Translations under genes and position numbers: made by a program
The notes under the pieces: model-generated
Seen by the model: only the letters and a program-made list of their open reading frames with translations
What the model was told of the DNA's origin: nothing
Database searches by the model: none
Part shown: in pieces, positions 27,179-52,900 of the stretch
Layout: each line of letters opens with the position of its first letter
Numbering within the stretch: the first letter of the stretch is position 1
Source of the DNA: Gonapodya sp. JEL0774
Lineage: Eukaryota
Reading direction: 5' to 3'
Length of the DNA: 64,000 nucleotides
Assembly: GCA_027604505.1 (NCBI GenBank)
Contig: JADIIX010000069.1
Coordinates: 1 to 64,000, forward strand

Positions 27179-27736
27179 TCACACTGCCGAAGCGGCTTCA
27201 ACGGGTTCTAGCAGATAATATATGTCGGTTCTCTGCTGGGTGATGTCTTTGTTGTCTTCCCCATACACCTCCCACGACCATCCTGCTGACTTCCTCTTGT
27301 TATCCTCCATCCACTTGTGAATCTGCAGATGAGTTGGGTGCAGTTTATCGAAGGCTCCAAAGTGTGTCCACTTCACGGCCTCGCCCGACGGAATGCTGAC
27401 ACAGTGTACCCCGCCCGAGCCCTCCTCTTCCTTGAACTCCGTTTTCACTTCCACACCAAACTCTATATCCATCGCTGAGGGCATTGTCTTGGGGTGCTTG
27501 TAGAGGAAGACTTCGCGGCCGTCCTTGCGCAGGTTCGGATGGTCGGACAAAAATTTACGTACAGATTTGATAGCAGGGGGGAAGGTCTTGGCGATTTCTG
27601 GCTGCGTGACGCAAGCATGGACGGCGGCGATGGGAGAGGAGACAACCTGGACGATTTCTGGGGAAGACTGGGTGGAACGACAAAAGGGAGATGAGTCGTG
27701 GGATCAACGGCAGAAAGCGTTGGTGTATCTCACCAT
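27179..27736 (-). CDS. GyrI-like small-molecule-binding domain protein
   Basis: The first exon is ATG only (27734-27736), then intron 27668-27733, then SSPEIVQVV...MDIEFGVEV...IPSGEAVKWTHFGAFDKLHPTHLQIHKWM...AGWSWEVYGE...RTDIYYLL, a typical GyrI-like/effector-binding fold pattern. Confidence 0.85.
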
Positions 27737-39378: not shown

Positions 39379-42127
39379 TCAATCTTCAACCCTTTTAAAG
39401 TGCCCGTACCTTCCAGCCTTGAATACGCCATTGCGAAAGTTTGCATATATCATTGTCACCCGCTTGGGGTTTGGTGTGCCCTGAAGCGCCATCATGTTGT
39501 ACCACAGTAGCTGCCCCTTCTCAATCATGTCATATTGTGTTCCTGGCTGTGGGTCAGAGAACTTCACTTCCACAATGAAAAGATCATTCTCCCTGGTGGA
39601 GCCCTCGAAGTCTGTGTAGCCTTGAACGCAATCCAACTTGTACTTCTTTTGTGACAACCACTCGTTGACGCCAGTGGCTGCCATCAAATTCTCTGCAAAG
39701 AGTTCGATATTTGGAAGGACTTGCGCTACCACCTCTGCAGCATCATCTAAAAGTTCGGCTGTTGTGGCGGTGCTCTATTCATGTTCGCTCAAGGAAAATG
39801 ATTGAAAACTGCCAACCCACCACTATCAAAACCGTCAGCACAGAGTTGTGTAATAATGCGCTTTCGGCCGACTGCGCCTGACAAACGAAGGGGACTGAGC
39901 GCTGAAATACTGAGGAAATGTCCCAAAAACGCTTCCACAGTTTTGCCCAGAGCCATAAGTTCCTCGGCTTTGTACCAATATTTTTTTCCAAGGACGTTTC
40001 CCTGCTGGCCAAGCCCTTTTGTAAGATTTCTTTCAAGCTCCTCTTCTGTCACCCACTGCGCTGGCTCAACAATCTCCACCTTCTGCTCCCATGCCTTTTC
40101 AACGAACCGTTTGACACCGATAGTGCTCTTCCCGTTAAATTTATCTACCCTTCTCAAAAAATGGTTTGGAAGGTTCCGAAGGTTTCGATCAACAGAGTTC
40201 TGATACTCCACTTCAGCATCTTTGTTTCCACCCCTCACAGCCTCCTGAAGCAATTTAACACCCCGCGCAAAGTTCTTTCTGACAAGATCACTGTACTTTG
40301 ATAAGTCAAGATAGGCGCGGCTCATTGCATACGTCCCCTCTGCTTGCTGCGTTGGATGTTCACTACATTCGCTATAATACACTTGAGCTGGGCCGTATCG
40401 CACAGTGACACAGTGGTGAAGCAATCGAAAACCTCGGTCGTAATTCCTCTTCAAGATCTCTCCTCTCAAGTAGCCAAGGGCGAATGCGAATATCGCTGCT
40501 GCGTTTGATCTGCCCTTTCCTTTGATACATTCCTTGCGCAGCTCGATGGCTTGCTTGTTTCCGTGCTTCACAGCTTCCAAGAGAGATGTGACGAAGCCGG
40601 GATAGTCAGGATAGTCCCGGTGCTCAAGAGCCTGTGTAGCACGAGTAAAGAATTGAGCCCCCAAGTCCACTGGCGTTTCTTCGAGAGCTTGGCATTCAAG
40701 TTGCGTGTTTTGAAGCTCTGCATTGGGAGCCGCGGGTTCATGCGGCACATTTGGACCTCTTGCCACAGTAACATGGTGTTTATCTTCGACCCTTTTGGTT
40801 TCCACAATTTGAGTGGTGGGTTTAGCTTCCATTGTCCTGCACCCCAACGGTAGTTGGAAACCCATATCGGCGGGACCAACTCCGCCGGGTGAAAGTGGAT
40901 CTAAAGCTGTTTGAGATTTTGCACCTGAGGAATGAGCTTGAGATCTTCTTTCGCCATCAATATCACTCAGCTTACACTCAGATTGCGAAGCCAAAACGCC
41001 CTGTGGGGTCGTGTACTTGGGAGAGGGTGGAGCACTACTTATTGGAATATTCTTCGTATCAGACTGTAGCTGAGTTGACGCCTCCTCTTGCCCCGGCGGA
41101 GTAGGAGTGCCTCTCTGCTGATCGCTCTGCTTGGATTTCTGGCTTGCATCAGAAGAGCGAGGGCTGCGCCGACCGGGAACGGAGACCTGCCGAGACTCCG
41201 AGGCAACTACGGCAGTTGCATCTCCTTGGGAGGGCTCCCCCACCGGAGGAGTTGCTCTTTGCTGGCCACTCGACTTGGATTTGCCAGTTGCCTTAGAAGA
41301 GCGAAGGCTGCGCCGACCGCGAACGAAGACCTGCCGAGACAGCGGGGCTACTGCGGCCGCTGAATGTCCCTGGGAGGGGTCTCTTTGCCCCACCGGAGTA
41401 GTGGCTCTCTGCCGGACGCTTTGTTTAGATTTCCCAGTTGCGTCAGAAGAGCGAAGGCTGCGCTGGCCTGGGCCGGAGACCTGCCGAGACAAGGCGGCAA
41501 CACTAGTACTTGAGAGATCTCTCTGGGAACTTGCATTCACAGCGGGAGAAAAATGTCGATGATGTTGGTGCTGACTTGTAACTCTATTTGCCGTTCCCTG
41601 CTCCATAGAAGTCGCAGCTTCGTCGGGATGGACGTATGGGCACCTCCACCTGGGTATGCGACAGTTATTCTTGTGCCGACACGGGCCCAGAGCGCTTTTA
41701 TAGTTCGAAGGGTGGTATTTGTGCTCGTTTTTTGTATGGGCGAAGCCGCATCTCTCCCCGCGAGTGCAGGTTCGATGTTTGCACCGAACTGCACTGTAAG
41801 TGACTATCCAATAGAATGCTCTCACAAAGACTCATGTGAGGCAGGGCAACAAAATCTCACAGTTCTCTCCTCTCTCAGCCACCCTCCGGCGGAGCTCTGA
41901 CGTTGAGTGAGCGAACCAGCAACTGAAGACGTTGAAAGGACCGATCGGATGTTGAGTGGGGTCAATGCAATGAAGACGTGAGGATCGCAATGAAAATGTC
42001 CCATCAGAAACCTGGAAGCTCACTCGGCTCCGTATCTACACGTCGTTTTGTCCACATGATGATCGCACATCTTGAGCTTGTAGTCTCGGGGTAGCACACT
42101 TCCAGCAGAGTCCCACTGGGCGGCCAT
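39379..42127 (-). CDS. Unkempt-like tandem CCCH zinc-finger / Sel1-like repeat / PD-(D/E)XK nuclease fusion protein (~842 aa)
   Basis: Exons 42024-42127, 41861-41922, 39821-41803 and 39379-39758 join in frame (2529 nt). The protein has three CCCH fingers, Sel1-like helices and C-terminal GYTDFEG...LFIVEVK...QLLWY. Confidence 0.75.
41100..41510. repeat. Coding tandem repeat, ~3 copies with 144/150-bp period (48/50 aa) inside the CCCH-nuclease gene
   Basis: Anchor AGAAGAGCGA at 41151, 41295 and 41445. Peptide unit SRQV..(P/R)GRRS(L/P)RSS.A..KSK(Q/S)S..QR.T.P.G. Confidence 0.9.
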
Positions 42128-42526
42128 TTTGCATACGCGTTGCTGGTTTTGATGGTAATAGTGTTTCCTTGTCTGATTCCCAGGTAAAACCTTTGCTGCT
42201 GGCAGTTTGGGTTTCCGATTTTTGCCAATATATTAATATATTACGGTGGACACTATGTTGACGTTTTCCGTTGAGCATATCGTCCTTCACTCGGCAGGCT
42301 GAGCACGCTGGTCGTCGCAGAAATGGGGCAGGGATGATGGGATCGGTAAATAATGAACTGTTAGTGAGGGGGTTCTCACTGATATGGACCACTACATACA
42401 AATATACATGATAGACAAGGGGGGGCGATTGGGGGGCCCGGATTCCGCTTTGTATGGGACCAGATCAGAACGTTTATTCGACAGCAGCAACAACAATGTC
42501 CACTTCTTTCAATTGGCAGCAGGCTA

Positions 42527-46396: not shown

Positions 46397-48486
46397 CTAG
46401 AGCTTTTTTCTCGCTTCCCGAAGCTTCTCAAGGTCCATATTGAGCTTGGACCTTTGAGCAACCACCTTACTGGACTCTTCGATCTCCCTGAGATCGGTGA
46501 GCTGCAATTGCTTGCGGAGTGACTCCATACCGACTCGGAACAGCCGTCTCTCGACGGCGTACATGCATACCGCGTCCACATACTTCTTTGCTGCAGTAGC
46601 AAGGTAAGACTTGATCCGATCGATTAGGTCCTTGATGTCGAAATCAGTCCCTCTGCTTGTGACCAACAGTGGTGCGATTGGATGGATGGCAGAGGCGACG
46701 GTGGTGCCGTTGATGGTCGCCCCATTGCTTCGCGCTTTTGTGAGCGACTCAGTATAGTGGTCCGAAGTGGTCATTGGCGTCATCTCATCGATGAACATCT
46801 CCTTTACTTCTTCCAAAATGCTCTTTTGTACGGAATATACATGATTCTCGACACAGGCTTGAAACGAGCGCTTGAGCGTTGCGTGCACGGTGTCTTGGAT
46901 AATGAGACGCAAGGTGTCACTGAAAGAGAAAGTCAGATGTCTTTTTCGACTTGACAAGAGCATGCCATGACTCACAGAACCGCCGAACATATAGCCTCGA
47001 CATGTTGCTTGGTAATATCGTGCCAGGGCTGGATACTCCCGTTTGCCAACTGCACGAACGCATGGTATGGCGGGAATCCCGGGAGCTCGTATCCCCGGCA
47101 ATCTCTGATCATTTTCTCTGCGAGAGTCGGGTCAAGTTCCTGACCCACGTGCTTCAAGATCTCAGCGTGAAACTTCTCGTCGAGATTGCGGATATTGGCG
47201 CGGAGGAACAGAGCTTCAGTGATATCGGACGAATGCGCGTAGCGACCAGTGGCACATGACTTGTACGCCTCCATAAAGACGGCAACGCTCTCGTGAAGAA
47301 CCACGTGCCTCTGTTGCTCGGTGGAGATTTCCATGCCCAGCTTGGCTAGCTCCTTTTCCTTCTTCTCGATCACCCGGTCGACCTCGGAGCGGACTTTGGG
47401 GAGCTCCTGCTGTACGTGCCCGTGGAGGATTCGGACGAGCCGCTCACGAAGTTCCATGACACCCCTCTGATTTTCATTGACTTCCGACCACGGGTGGAGG
47501 GTGAAGAATTGTTCTTCAATCTCGGTGAGCTTGGTAAGAGGGAGGTCAGATTCCACTTCGCTGAAATTGCGATTGCGGACACAGTGATAGCCAAGCTTGA
47601 AATCGCAGCGTTCGCCACGGAGAATCTTCAAGACCGTCTCCACTTCACCACCATCAATCGTGTCGCATTTCGTAATCACTCCCAAGGTTCTAGCGCCATT
47701 GTTGCCCAGTTTCTCAACCTTGTCCACCACAACATTGGTTGCAAGATCTTTATTGGCCGGTATCACTGCGAGAATGATTGTTCGCTCATTCTGGAGGTAA
47801 GGGTCCACAATTTTTTCGATATCTTCCTTGATCGTGATTGACTGGCCTTTGACTGGAATGGGGGAATGGAGGTTGAGATTTGGAAAATTAGATATTCCGC
47901 AACAAACAGGAATTCACCCACTTGCACTGTGCACATAACCAGGAAGATCAACCAACGTCAATCTGGGATACTTGGGACCACGAAGTTCGACAGATAGCAG
48001 CTTATCAGCAACGACGCCGACTCCGACGTTTGTCGAGTTGGTGTAGGCGGAAAGCATTTCCTTAGCTTTGCTTATGACTTGCTGAACATCTTCCTCGGAC
48101 TTGGGCGGGGGCAAATTTACAGGCGCTTCGGAGTTGCCATGCACAATCGAGACGGCAGACGTAAATTCTTCCGCTGGTCCCATGACAATTTGGGTGGCAA
48201 ACGTGGTGCACATTTCCTTGCCTTTTGGAAACGTAACCCCAGAAATGGCTTCTAGGAGAGAAGACTTTCCAGAAGACTGACTTTGAAAGCGTCGCAACGA
48301 GGAATGGGCACAGACAAATGGGAAACGGGAGCTACTGTAAGAAGACTGTCGCAGGGTTTAAGACAAGATAACTTACTCGCCAACGACCGCGATCTGAGGA
48401 AGCTCGATGAGGCGACCTACGCAGAGCTTGCGGACCTCGTCAACGCGGTCGAGAAGTGCCGCGGTGGATTGCAGAAAAGTCGCCAT
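46397..48486 (-). CDS. Mx-like dynamin-related GTPase
   Basis: G1 LPQIAVVGD|QSSGKSS (split by an intron), G2 CTTFAT, G3 DLPG, G4 TKCD, LGYHCVRNR, Mx-type RGYELPGF and a short GED. No PH or PRD domain. Introns include 46920-46975. Confidence 0.92.
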
Positions 48487-48854: not shown

Positions 48855-51800
48855 ATGACGGTCGAAACACCCGAGGCACGTCAATTATACGAACCGCGCA
48901 AAGTTGATGGGCCTGTTTTCGCTGGTGTGCATGCCTGGATTAATCCCCTCGTTGGACATGAACGATTTAAAGAAGTAAGTCACAGTTGGTCAACGAATTG
49001 CACACGGAATCGCAAGAATATAGGAGTATTCGAGCGACCGCGAAGTAAAATGAAAAATCGAAGCTTTGTTAGCCGGCTCACCGTGGAATCTACCTCGTCT
49101 GGTGCACTGCGAGAGGACATTACTTCCTTGATTCCTGGCCCGACTTTATGATAACGGAGACTCAGAGTACACTAGTTTTACATTATTCTCATCGCTCGAC
49201 GCCTTGCAGCTCCTGCACTTACTGCGGGAGGGAGGAGGAGAATGTCTTTGGGCTCCTCCCTCTTCATCTGTCGAACCACACGCCGCCGCCGATTCCGATG
49301 CACCAAACACCACTAGTATGAATGTGATCGACCCAGCATTCTTGGTCTCTCAACGTGCCTACGATATCCCCGTCAACGTCACCCACATCGTCACCGATGA
49401 CACAGAGTGGGGAGTGCAGTACATTCGTAAGGAGTTCCTGAAAAGGGAAGGAGACCAAAAGGTTGTCGAAGTTACTGTGAGAGTTCATTGCGGCTTCTCA
49501 GCCCCGCTGTTGTCAGGAGTTCTTTCTGTGAATGCGCTGTGGGCAACCAGGCATCTCACAATCTTGGTTTCAATTTGACTATCAGCCTCTCTGGGTTACA
49601 ATCTGTTCCTCCCAAAAGAAACTTTACGAGTATGTGTTCGTGGCCTGCCCTGACCAGACATGTTCTCTCATGGGGTTGCTCGAAATCTCACTGAAATTCC
49701 TTTCATTTCACCAACCATATTCCAAGACCCTCCCGCTACTCACCCAACCCCACCATGTTTTTTTCGGGCGTCATTGCAACTTGCTCAGGGGTGCGTTTTG
49801 ACCATTGGACGGATCGTGAAACAGGAGTTGTCCCGTCCATTGAACCGTGTCTCCCTCCATCCTCTAGCTCCGGACACCCGATCGCGTTCATATCTTTGGT
49901 GCCATATGTGCATTTGGAGGGCAGTATCGGGATGGCCTCACCGCCGATGTGACACATTTGGTGACAACGGAGGGAGCTGGGGTGAGTCCTTAAAGGCGAG
50001 AACAGTGAAGCTTGATGGCATTGTGGCAATGAACGCCAAAGAACATATAAGTGATGGCAGACGGAGGAGTGGTGGTGTGAGAAAGGATGGAACGGGAATA
50101 TGTCTATCTCTTCTGTCCTGCCCATCTCGCAAGGTGATGGTTCGAACACGAAGTCCACATTTTCATCGCTCCAAACACTTTCACGCAGCAAAAATACCTT
50201 GCCCTTACCACCCATCCCGAGCTCCGTTTGTCCGCGCGTGCCGTCCACCCCCGCTGGGTTGACGACTGCGTGCGAACTCGCACCCTTCTCCCAGTCGAAT
50301 CTTTCGCTCCCCCATCAACTGCTTCTCCCTCTCCCGCCGAGCCGAGCGTTCCCACCACTGCCACCTCACAAAAACCAGAAAATGGCTCTTTGAACAAACC
50401 CCGCTCCCAGTTTCTCGCAGGACGGACAGTCTACCTGGATCCTCGATGTTTCGCACCTTCGACTGGCGCACCAGCAACTGCTTCGGCCCTCCAGCGATAC
50501 TCTCGTTTGATATCCTCCTGTGGCGGCCAGGCTATTACCAATCTCCCGCCGCTTCCATCCCCACCCCCTTCTCCGCCTTCACTTCCACCCGCGGGTGTAC
50601 CACACATGGCAGTGCTGCTCAACAGGGGGGACCCCAGAACTCATTTGGAAAGTCTTGGATGTTTGGTGGGGAGTTTGGACTGGCTGAGAGACGTCATTGC
50701 CGGTGAGAGGATAACGCCACCAAAGCAAAAGGTGTTGCACTACCCGAAGCCCACGAACGGCGTTCCAGGGGCGGGCGATTTTGTGAGTTGTTACAAATGG
50801 CTAGCAAAGATTAAAGAAATTTCACGCTGATAACACCAATTCACTGTGCTCCGGAGGACCACAGGTCATCTGCGTGAGCAACTACAAAACGCGGGCGGTG
50901 CGTGACGACGTTCAGAAAATGGTGGAGTACATCGGTGCCAAGTACACCAGCTCCCTAACTCCGCGGAATACTCACTGCATATGTGCCGAGCCAACTGGTG
51001 ACAAGTACACTCACTGCCTGGAGTGGAACATAGAGGTTGTCACACATCGATGGGTTTGTATTCATCTGGTCCATGAGGTGTCTCTTTTGCCCAGAACTCA
51101 TTCATTCGGGTTTTCAGCTTGAAGACACCCTGTCTCGTCTCAAGGTACAACCACTCTCTAGACCAGAGTACTCGTTCGTCGGAGCCGACCGTACGGCGCT
51201 CGAAGGCATAGCAGGTCGGAAAGCAATCGAGGTGCCAGATGATGTTGTATCGTTAGAAGGCACGCCCAAAAAAGCACTGGTCCAACCGACATCGGCGTTA
51301 GAGCCATCATCTGAGGCTCCGGCAAATCTGCGGCCTGGGCAAACCACCTCCTCTGAGGCAATCAAAGATGTTAGTGGAGCTGGGGAGAGCTCAGGCAAAT
51401 CCCAGTTGACCAATGGGGTTCCACCGGTCACAGTCGAGAGTGTTACAACGGATGTTGGGAAGGAAGAGAAGAGTCAGGTCACCACTGCGCCACCTGCTCC
51501 CCTCAGTACACCAACCTCTGCAAAACTGGTATCGGAGACCGCCAAGCCAATCGCGCAAAGCGCGCCGTCCTTACCTGCCGTGTCGGAGCCCAAGCCCTCA
51601 TCAACCAAACGGAAACCGCCCGATCAACAATCCCCCAATCGGTCCAAACGAGCTCGCCCATCATCTGAAAGGGTGGATTTGCGAGCGTCGGATAAAGAAG
51701 TAATCATAGACCATACACCTAGCACGAACGCAGTAGCGACGGCCCGTAGTCCCCCCCCCGCGTCGACACCCGTAAGGTCTCCGTCCGCCAAATCCTCCAC

Positions 51801-52900
51801 ACCTAAACGGCAAGCAAGGGCGGAGAAGTCCACTAGAAGCAATATCCGTGAGGGGTTGGTAAAGAGCTCGGTGAAAAAGCCAGCGATAATTGAAACTGGA
51901 ACTCGGTTGTTGACAAAATCGGAGTGAGTGTGTGGTGTATGCAAAGCGCGTATCCTTATCTTTTTGGTTGCACTCATTCTCACCATTTAATTTTGGCCTT
52001 CGCTAACACGACATTAGTTGGAAGGTGAGGTTGGGCACTTAACCCCCTTGCATTCCACCATCTTGGACAAGAGATCGTTGGTGCTGATTCACTTATGCTC
52101 TGCAGAATATTGTGAAAATCGGCGGCACGGAAGCCGCCTCAATCGAAGAAGCAACTCATGTTGTGACCAACCGGGTCACGCGCACGGAAAAATTCTTCGC
52201 GGCGCTGTGCTTATGCAAGTTTATTGTGGATCCATCGTGGGTTCTGGACAGTGTTTCGGCCGGCGCCTGGCTGGGTGAGTCTTGCTGTTATGCCGGGAAA
52301 GGCGGGATTGTTCCAAAATGAAGCAGATGCCTTTCGCAACACCGTTCATAAAAGATGAGAGTGCCCACGTTGTCAAGGACGCCGAAACAGAGAAAGTACT
52401 GAAGTTCAACTTGGTGGAGTCGATGCAGAGAGCGCGTCGTCGCAAATTGCTGACCAACCGTGTAGTGTGTGTTACACCGTCAGTTTTGCCGAGCGAGACA
52501 ATTATCAAGGGAATTGTGGAGAACGCTGGAGGCAAGGCATGTTCGATGGAATGAACTTTCGTGCCTTTCGCATGGTCACAATGTACATTTCCGTGAACGT
52601 AGTTTGTCTCGCAGCCGTCTCCGCGGAAAATCCGAGACATGATGGATGATACCATTGTTCTTTCTTGTGTGGCAGACGAGAAAATGTGGCGTGCGTTCAC
52701 AGAGAGGAATTTAAATGTGTGGGTTCGCGTTCTGGTGGCGATTGCTGCAGTTTCAAAAGCGTGGCTTTCCGACCTGTGCGCTCTCAATTTGAGACAGATA
52801 TACGACTGAGCTTCTTCTGCAGGGTCTTATTCGGCAAGAAGTCAATATGGACCAGCCAGACTTGATGCTGGCTGCAGGAAAGGAGCAACCAGAGCAATGA
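48855..52900 (+). CDS. Multi-BRCT DNA-damage scaffold (Rtt107/Brc1-like)
   Basis: N-terminal BRCTs (VFAGVHAWI, PLWV, MFFSGVIATCS, GSLDWLRD...LHYP, VSNY...VEYIGAKYTSSLTPRNTHCIC...VVTHRW), a disordered linker, and a C-terminal BRCT pair (ATHVVTNRVTRTEKFFAAL...IVDPSWV; IVENAGG; GLIRQE). Confidence 0.85.

Follow-up and report, generated by a model that had tools for sequence, protein, structure and literature searches.

A predicted four-exon gene on the minus strand of a 64-kb stretch of DNA from the aquatic fungus Gonapodya sp. JEL0774 (positions 1 to 64,000 of contig JADIIX010000069.1, hereafter the window) spans 39379–42127 and very probably encodes one 842-amino acid protein that carries a cluster of three Cys-Cys-Cys-His (CCCH) zinc fingers like those of Unkempt, a long low-complexity linker, a weakly Sel1-like helical region and a predicted PD-(D/E)XK nuclease domain of the RecB family. 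The gene is real and intact, and it is an orphan. We tentatively propose that the nuclease would be steered by the fingers to chosen RNAs for decay. An earlier note on this DNA had described the fusion and interpreted it as an RNA-sensing defence effector; its observation of the gene holds and its domain calls are supported at the level of prediction, whereas the step to a defence effector is without evidence. The architecture belongs to a theme in which CCCH fingers are coupled to a nuclease, in a combination not found elsewhere in the searches made.

Gene model and predicted splicing

In silico removal of three GT-AG introns joined exons of 104, 62, 1983 and 380 nt into a 2529-nt frame encoding 842 amino acids and a stop codon. 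Exon 1 (42024–42127) provides the ATG, with A at −3 and G at +4, and the first half of finger 1, which is split by intron 1 (41923–42023; 101 nt, GTGAGC..CAG), and exon 2 (41861–41922) provides the second half of finger 1 and a basic linker. Intron 2 (41804–41860; 57 nt, GTGAGA..TAG), which holds an in-frame stop, is followed by exon 3 (39821–41803), a single open frame encoding fingers 2 and 3, the low-complexity linker, the Sel1-like helices and the N-terminal part of the nuclease region. The predicted intron 3 (39759–39820; 62 nt, GTGGGT..CAG) separates this exon from exon 4 (39379–39758), which encodes the predicted PD-(D/E)XK catalytic core and the stop codon. All three introns proposed in the earlier note were found at these minus-strand coordinates, and splicing arithmetic confirmed its 2529-nt frame. 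Retention of intron 1, 2 or 3 would end the product at 35, 64 or 726 amino acids, respectively.

The donors, acceptors and lengths of the three introns fit those of candidate introns, themselves inferred, that could be placed at 8 of the 12 junctions tried in neighbouring genes (51–140 nt, with donors such as GTGAGT, GTGAGG, GTGGGT and GTACGT). Fingers 2 and 3, the linker, the helical region and residues 601–716 lie in the open frame of exon 3 and are linked without any need for splicing. In addition, a codon model trained on seven long open reading frames (ORFs) of the window ranked the gene frame best of six for four of the five segments tested, namely the linker, the helical region, the N-terminal part of the nuclease region and exon 4.

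The NCBI model of this gene, HDU93_008650 (463 amino acids), has the same 3′ part, sharing both the C-terminus and the intron 3 junction when the two are compared by reading. Its start, Met380, lies by arithmetic at 40830–40832 and also has A at −3 and G at +4. We think that this model is 5′-truncated, because the open frame links the fingers to the rest of the protein, the codon signal is in frame and the repeats of the linker are spaced in multiples of three, and a correction of the public gene model, which lacks the fingers, is suggested. An out-of-frame ATG at 42134 of the minus strand precedes the main ATG by 7 nt and begins an overlapping frame of 32 codons; it could lower the rate of translation, or could have led the gene caller astray.

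Domains of the predicted protein

The three fingers, read from the spliced translation, have the spacings given in the earlier note: C21-x8-C-x5-C-x3-H40 for finger 1 (residues 21–40; 41907–42067, interrupted by intron 1), C63-x4-C-x5-C-x3-H78 for finger 2 (residues 63–78; 41736–41783) and C97-x5-C-x6-C-x3-H114 for finger 3 (residues 97–114; 41628–41681). The spacing of finger 1 is canonical only once intron 1 is removed. Among PDB sequences, fingers 2 and 3 matched Unkempt chain 5ELK (the ZnF4–6 cluster; E 3.6e-5), with the best stretch comprising finger 2 and the Unkempt-type inter-finger linker that follows it. By eye, finger 1 and its basic linker look similar to the first finger in that chain. 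Weaker matches were to CPSF30, Roquin, Muscleblind and BRF2 (E 0.15–1.4), and Pfam matches to the fingers were weak (E 0.07–0.11). The 5ELK match leaves the earlier assignment of the fingers and their linker to the Unkempt type well supported as a prediction, and points to a single three-finger cluster of the Unkempt kind, whose likely ligand is a short motif in single-stranded RNA.

Shared with Unkempt are three CCCH fingers, a linker of the same type joining fingers 2 and 3, and a long low-complexity region after the cluster. Unkempt also carries a RING domain, to which Pfam scans of the gene gave no match. According to PMC11009413, Unkempt has two clusters, which specify UAG and a U/A-rich trimer; its long disordered region binds CCR4-NOT and PABPC, and a coiled coil lies at its C-terminus. 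In contrast, the Gonapodya protein has one three-finger cluster where Unkempt has two, and a nuclease-like C-terminus where Unkempt has a coiled coil. Unkempt works through CCR4-NOT/PABPC and has no nuclease domain. The protein would work like half an Unkempt RNA-binding module, yet it is not an Unkempt.

The linker between the fingers and the Sel1-like region (residues 118–430; 40680–41618) is likely disordered, with a composition of 15% Ser, 10% Ala, 10% Gln, 9% Pro and 8% Arg. It includes three frame-preserving repeats (41103–41531) with a 135-nt core and spacings of 144 and 150 nt, both multiples of three. The repeats, of about 49 amino acids, are basic and rich in Ser, Arg and Gln, and their DNA is 67–79% alike; in one pair, 15 of 29 differences fall at third codon positions. 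These repeats are possible binding or phosphorylation motifs. The domains of the architecture described earlier are retained here, with the addition of this omitted segment of about 313 amino acids. The helical region that follows (residues ~436–596; 40182–40664) matched the Sel1 family PF08238 at E 0.0028 and 17.9–18.6 bits, below the gathering score of 30.7 bits, and a Sel1 repeat protein appeared among PDB sequences only at E 7.5. Two or three Sel1-like hairpins are weakly indicated, and the Sel1-like helices of the earlier note keep this standing below the Pfam cut-off.

The C-terminal domain (residues ~601–842; 39382–40169) is predicted, with high probability, to adopt a restriction-endonuclease-like fold, and metal-dependent catalysis by it is likely. 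The motifs reported earlier are present in order: G763-x2-D766 (motif II; 39610–39621), E780-x-K782 (motif III; 39562–39570), which aligns to the D-Y-K of AddB-type proteins, and Q799-x3-Y803 (39499–39513), 16 residues after K782. A passage of PMC2475608 presents QxxxY just after motif III as a mark of RecB-family nucleases. Candidate motif I, G675-x3-E679 (39933–39947), was picked out by visual comparison with YqaJ and AddB-type sequences. It falls within the exon 3 part of the domain, which scores at shuffle level, and lies 83 residues before motif II, compared with 93–95 in three AddB-type sequences. If this assignment is right, the nuclease domain would straddle intron 3, as is likely.

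The Pfam family PDDEXK_1 (PF12705) matched exon 4 at E 0.01 and 16.2 bits and the NCBI 463-amino acid protein at 14 bits. In the ESM atlas, all 30 matches to exon 4 were PDDEXK_1 clusters (best 0.94); for an intron-spanning segment of 249 amino acids, 23 of 30 carried PF12705 and the other seven had no family (best 0.95). The ten best named matches all belonged to the PDDEXK_1 family or clan. Core profiles were built from bacterial domains of the AddB type (30 of 30 fetched), YqaJ (9 of 16) and Cas4 (16 of 22), with rows lacking the anchor motif dropped. On the pooled profile of 55 RecB-family sequences, exon 4 scored 10.3 bits, compared with a maximum of 7.2 for shuffled sequences (0 of 5000 as high), and ranked first among 566 segments of the window; this profile excludes giant-virus loci, a version including them being partly circular. 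Singly, the profiles were less selective: 18 of 5000 shuffles scored as high as exon 4 on the AddB-type core, and 525 of 5000 on the nine-sequence YqaJ core, to which the motif I Glu is alike by eye. A motif pattern tailored to the query matched 7 of 100,000 shuffles but only 3 of 30 AddB-type domains, and is weak.

From the RecB/Cas4/lambda-exonuclease signature of the earlier note, a RecB-family core retains moderate support, and its Cas4 component does not. Cas4 carries a four-cysteine iron–sulphur cluster; residues 600–842 contain two cysteines and no cysteine cluster, and 1346 of 5000 shuffles scored as high on the Cas4 core model, so that Cas4 membership was rejected. An origin from giant-virus helicase-nucleases was not supported: the 18 loci, collected with a motif, are alike by eye, yet a profile of them did not match (as many as 3571 of 5000 shuffles reached the score of exon 4), and the suggested comparison with exonucleases of nucleocytoplasmic large DNA viruses found no backing in this set. 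As a separate observation, giant-virus proteins L081–L098 carry at the C-terminus a PD-(D/E)XK-like core with E-x-K and Q-x3-Y, have Pfam matches below cut-off only (Cas4 at E 0.002–0.06 in two of three scanned) and are apparently an uncurated family. The fold check called for in the earlier note yielded two single-sequence AlphaFold models with predicted local distance difference test (pLDDT) scores of 34 and 36, too poor to judge, and fold searches with these models gave only generic helices.

Proposed function and alternative explanations

If the nuclease is guided by the fingers, the Unkempt-like cluster would supply specificity by binding a short RNA motif, the disordered linker would give reach and the Sel1-like helices may bind partners. 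The PD-(D/E)XK site would then degrade the bound RNA, cleavage itself being non-specific, in a one-protein alternative to the recruitment of CCR4-NOT by Unkempt. We consider RNA, rather than DNA, the moderately probable substrate and infer this from the fingers alone, because a RecB-type core is usually a DNase. RNases are found within the PD-(D/E)XK fold, and a 2012 survey (PMC3424549) names Rai1, Pet127 and viral alkaline exonuclease. Activity on RNA would mean that a RecB-type nuclease has been retargeted from DNA to motif-selected RNA through fusion to Unkempt-like fingers, would bring a restriction-enzyme fold into the set of enzymes known for CCCH-guided RNA decay, and would provide a compact, testable design of fingers, tether and nuclease. 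The weight of these implications is limited by the single orphan, which so far offers no sign of a conserved fusion or of a link to defence.

Several observations weigh against RNA decay by a single finger-guided nuclease. The NCBI model starts at Met380 and is therefore without fingers, and the codon model does not favour the gene frame in the Cys/His-rich finger segment. Many other GT/GC..AG pairs at intron 3 would also restore a frame, so this junction rests on the matching NCBI prediction and the local splice consensus. A clear excess of third-position differences is seen in only one of the three pairs of linker repeats, which differ at many non-synonymous sites (11–12 of 36 codons). For the nuclease domain, all Pfam scores fall below cut-off (22 bits for PF12705), the top ESM atlas rows share only 134–150 of 256 features, in the range of distant relatives or chance, alignment to AddB-type domains with hhalign scored 20.9 versus 24.0 for the best of 40 shuffles, and whole-domain hidden Markov models performed at shuffle level (143 of 2000 for AddB). 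The closest motif set, that of RecB and AddB, acts on DNA. Finally, no homolog was found in searches that mostly needed exact words, the sensitive one covering exon 4 alone, those of the large protein databases covering parts other than the fingers and none covering a fungal genome set; homologs are "not found", rather than "absent", and as a result neither the fusion nor its catalytic residues can be shown to be conserved.

It is somewhat unlikely that the protein is instead a DNase acting on single-stranded DNA or DNA ends, in repair, at R-loops or on invading DNA-virus genomes, and recruited or switched by the fingers through RNA. The best motif and profile matches are to AddB-type DNases, and QxxxY is typical of non-specific DNA nucleases according to a passage of PMC2475608, but the protein lacks a helicase and any other domain for DNA binding, its fingers and linker are arranged as in an mRNA regulator, and the context is neither defensive nor mobile. 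We regard as unlikely an Unkempt-like RNA-binding adaptor in which the nuclease fold would be a non-catalytic module that binds RNA ends or protein, with mRNA repressed through partners of the linker and helices. As in Unkempt, a long low-complexity region comes after the finger cluster, and the fold has inactive members such as RecC (PMC3424549). In this case, though, D766, E780, K782, Q799 and Y803 would all have been kept while the rest of the domain diverged beyond detection, suggesting selection on catalysis.

Equally unlikely is a division into separate products, either a 463-amino acid Sel1-like and nuclease protein or, with intron 3 retained, a 726-amino acid finger protein lacking the catalytic core. 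The sequence context of Met380, the out-of-frame ATG 7 nt before the first ATG, the alternative splice pairs at intron 3 and the merely predicted status of the junctions would fit such a division. It is opposed by the run of about 345 open codons that exon 3 and its stop-to-stop frame contain ahead of Met380, for which hand arithmetic gives about 6e-8 at 3 stops per 64 codons; by the coding bias and intact fingers of these codons; and by the canonical spacing that finger 1 acquires only after splicing. Exon 4 itself begins about 30 nt past the read-through stop, which leaves no room for a promoter of its own, and its only early Met (742) would lose the first helix. A young, lineage-restricted chimera of a finger gene and a captured nuclease, drifting with little or no function, is improbable. 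The gene is a cluster of one on one contig, without relatives, but few relatives of Gonapodya sp. JEL0774 may be in the searched collections, its 842 codons contain no stop or frameshift, and the nuclease domain is not a fresh insertion because it has an internal intron and host-like codon use.

The role in antiviral or anti-transposon defence suggested in the earlier note gained no support: the chromosomal neighbours are ordinary, there was no PADLOC match, no mobile context and no expansion in the window, and no homolog showed conservation or expansion. It is improbable that the gene encodes an immune nuclease of early-diverging fungi, in which the fingers would read viral or transposon RNA and license the RecB-type nuclease against that RNA or its source DNA. 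Comparably improbable, and drawn by analogy, is the extension that such a nuclease was taken from prokaryotes or their viruses to form, on a restriction-enzyme fold, a one-protein counterpart of the pair of ZAP and its nuclease.

Relatives, related architectures and genomic setting

Searches for relatives returned little beyond the gene itself. Exon 4 matched one of 230 candidates among longer proteins, the gene's own NCBI model, and residues 55–463 of the NCBI protein matched one of 6789, itself; the C-terminal 244 amino acids matched none of 336 at E up to 10. The NCBI protein is a cluster of one on one contig, and no paralog was found within the 64-kb window. A search of 1.84 billion representatives with exon 4 gave four matches, namely itself and three repeat proteins, which were rejected as weak stretches summed; such tandem-repeat proteins (P0002–P0004) reach E 1e-5 to 1e-36 in this way, an artefact. 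Scans of metagenomes, genomes and viruses each gave a single weak locus (L001, L002 and L099), taken as chance. The viral scan with exon 4 gave 0 of 45, phages gave seven records only at E 0.2–5, a plasmid search gave no match and bacterial genomes gave 3 of 401 at E up to 0.05, which is chance level. Neither the nuclease part nor the Sel1 part had a significant match in searches of PHROGs, NCBIfam, PADLOC and PDB sequences.

The nearest comparison for the nuclease domain is the RecB-family/PDDEXK_1 group, including AddB-type C-terminal domains and small phage and archaeal proteins, which has G-x2-D, E-x-K and Q-x3-Y in the same order. The motifs are separated by 11 and 16 residues here; in three AddB-type sequences, those with a fitting pattern, the distances are 10–14 and 17–18. 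Unlike that group, the Gonapodya domain scores below the Pfam cut-off, has Glu rather than His in candidate motif I, lacks a helicase partner and a Cas4 cysteine cluster, and is eukaryotic, intron-bearing and fused to fingers of an RNA-binding type.

A CCCH finger and a PD-(D/E)XK domain also occur together in eukaryotic proteins with NARG2_C and zf-CCCH, which differ in their nuclease group, in having the finger after the nuclease and in the absence of Sel1 from the supplement files covered. In the accessible part of the 2012 survey (PMC3424549), zf-CCCH is fused only in group 78, in two NARG2_C records. Sel1 (PF08238) was not found in seven supplement files of that survey, and supplementary file 1, outside this scope, may bear on the point. 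No NARG2_C, RAI1 or DXO match was listed in Pfam at E up to 10, where filters drop weak matches.

Other CCCH proteins are tied to RNA decay through different nucleases. Regnase-1/ZC3H12 proteins combine CCCH fingers with a PIN/NYN nuclease, no domain of which was found in Pfam scans of the gene, and ZAP has CCCH fingers and recruits a separate nuclease. KEN-domain proteins with CCCH fingers exist, as a passage of PMC3710099 indicates. All three couple CCCH fingers to RNA decay, their nucleases being of PIN/NYN or HEPN folds, and none is known to have a RecB-type core. The combination of Unkempt fingers, Sel1 and a RecB-type nuclease was not found in full-text literature, where the matches, in the portions available, concern other proteins (PMC3710099, PMC4738411, PMC8409312 and PMC8583954), and literature searches on the organism gave nothing on the fusion gene. 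The earlier proposal of an undescribed architecture stands for the exact combination, which was not found in print, and is qualified by the NARG2_C and zf-CCCH precedent for joining CCCH fingers to PD-(D/E)XK.

The window is ordinary eukaryotic chromosome with no compositional break, and the gene lies just downstream of a Nic96 gene. Pfam matches were obtained for 8 of 17 scanned ORFs, with dynamin, PH, GAF, BRCT and glycosyltransferase matches elsewhere in the window. About 4 kb upstream, beyond Nic96, is a dynamin-family gene with Dynamin_N and Dynamin_M (46397–48357, minus strand), which we take to be Mx-like from its motif and for which no link to the fusion gene was shown. At 50138–51924 of the plus strand, a BRCT-domain ORF precedes a low-complexity ORF that gave no Pfam match, and a GyrI-like small-molecule-binding domain, here in a fungal genome, is encoded at 27182–27703 of the minus strand (E 9e-8).

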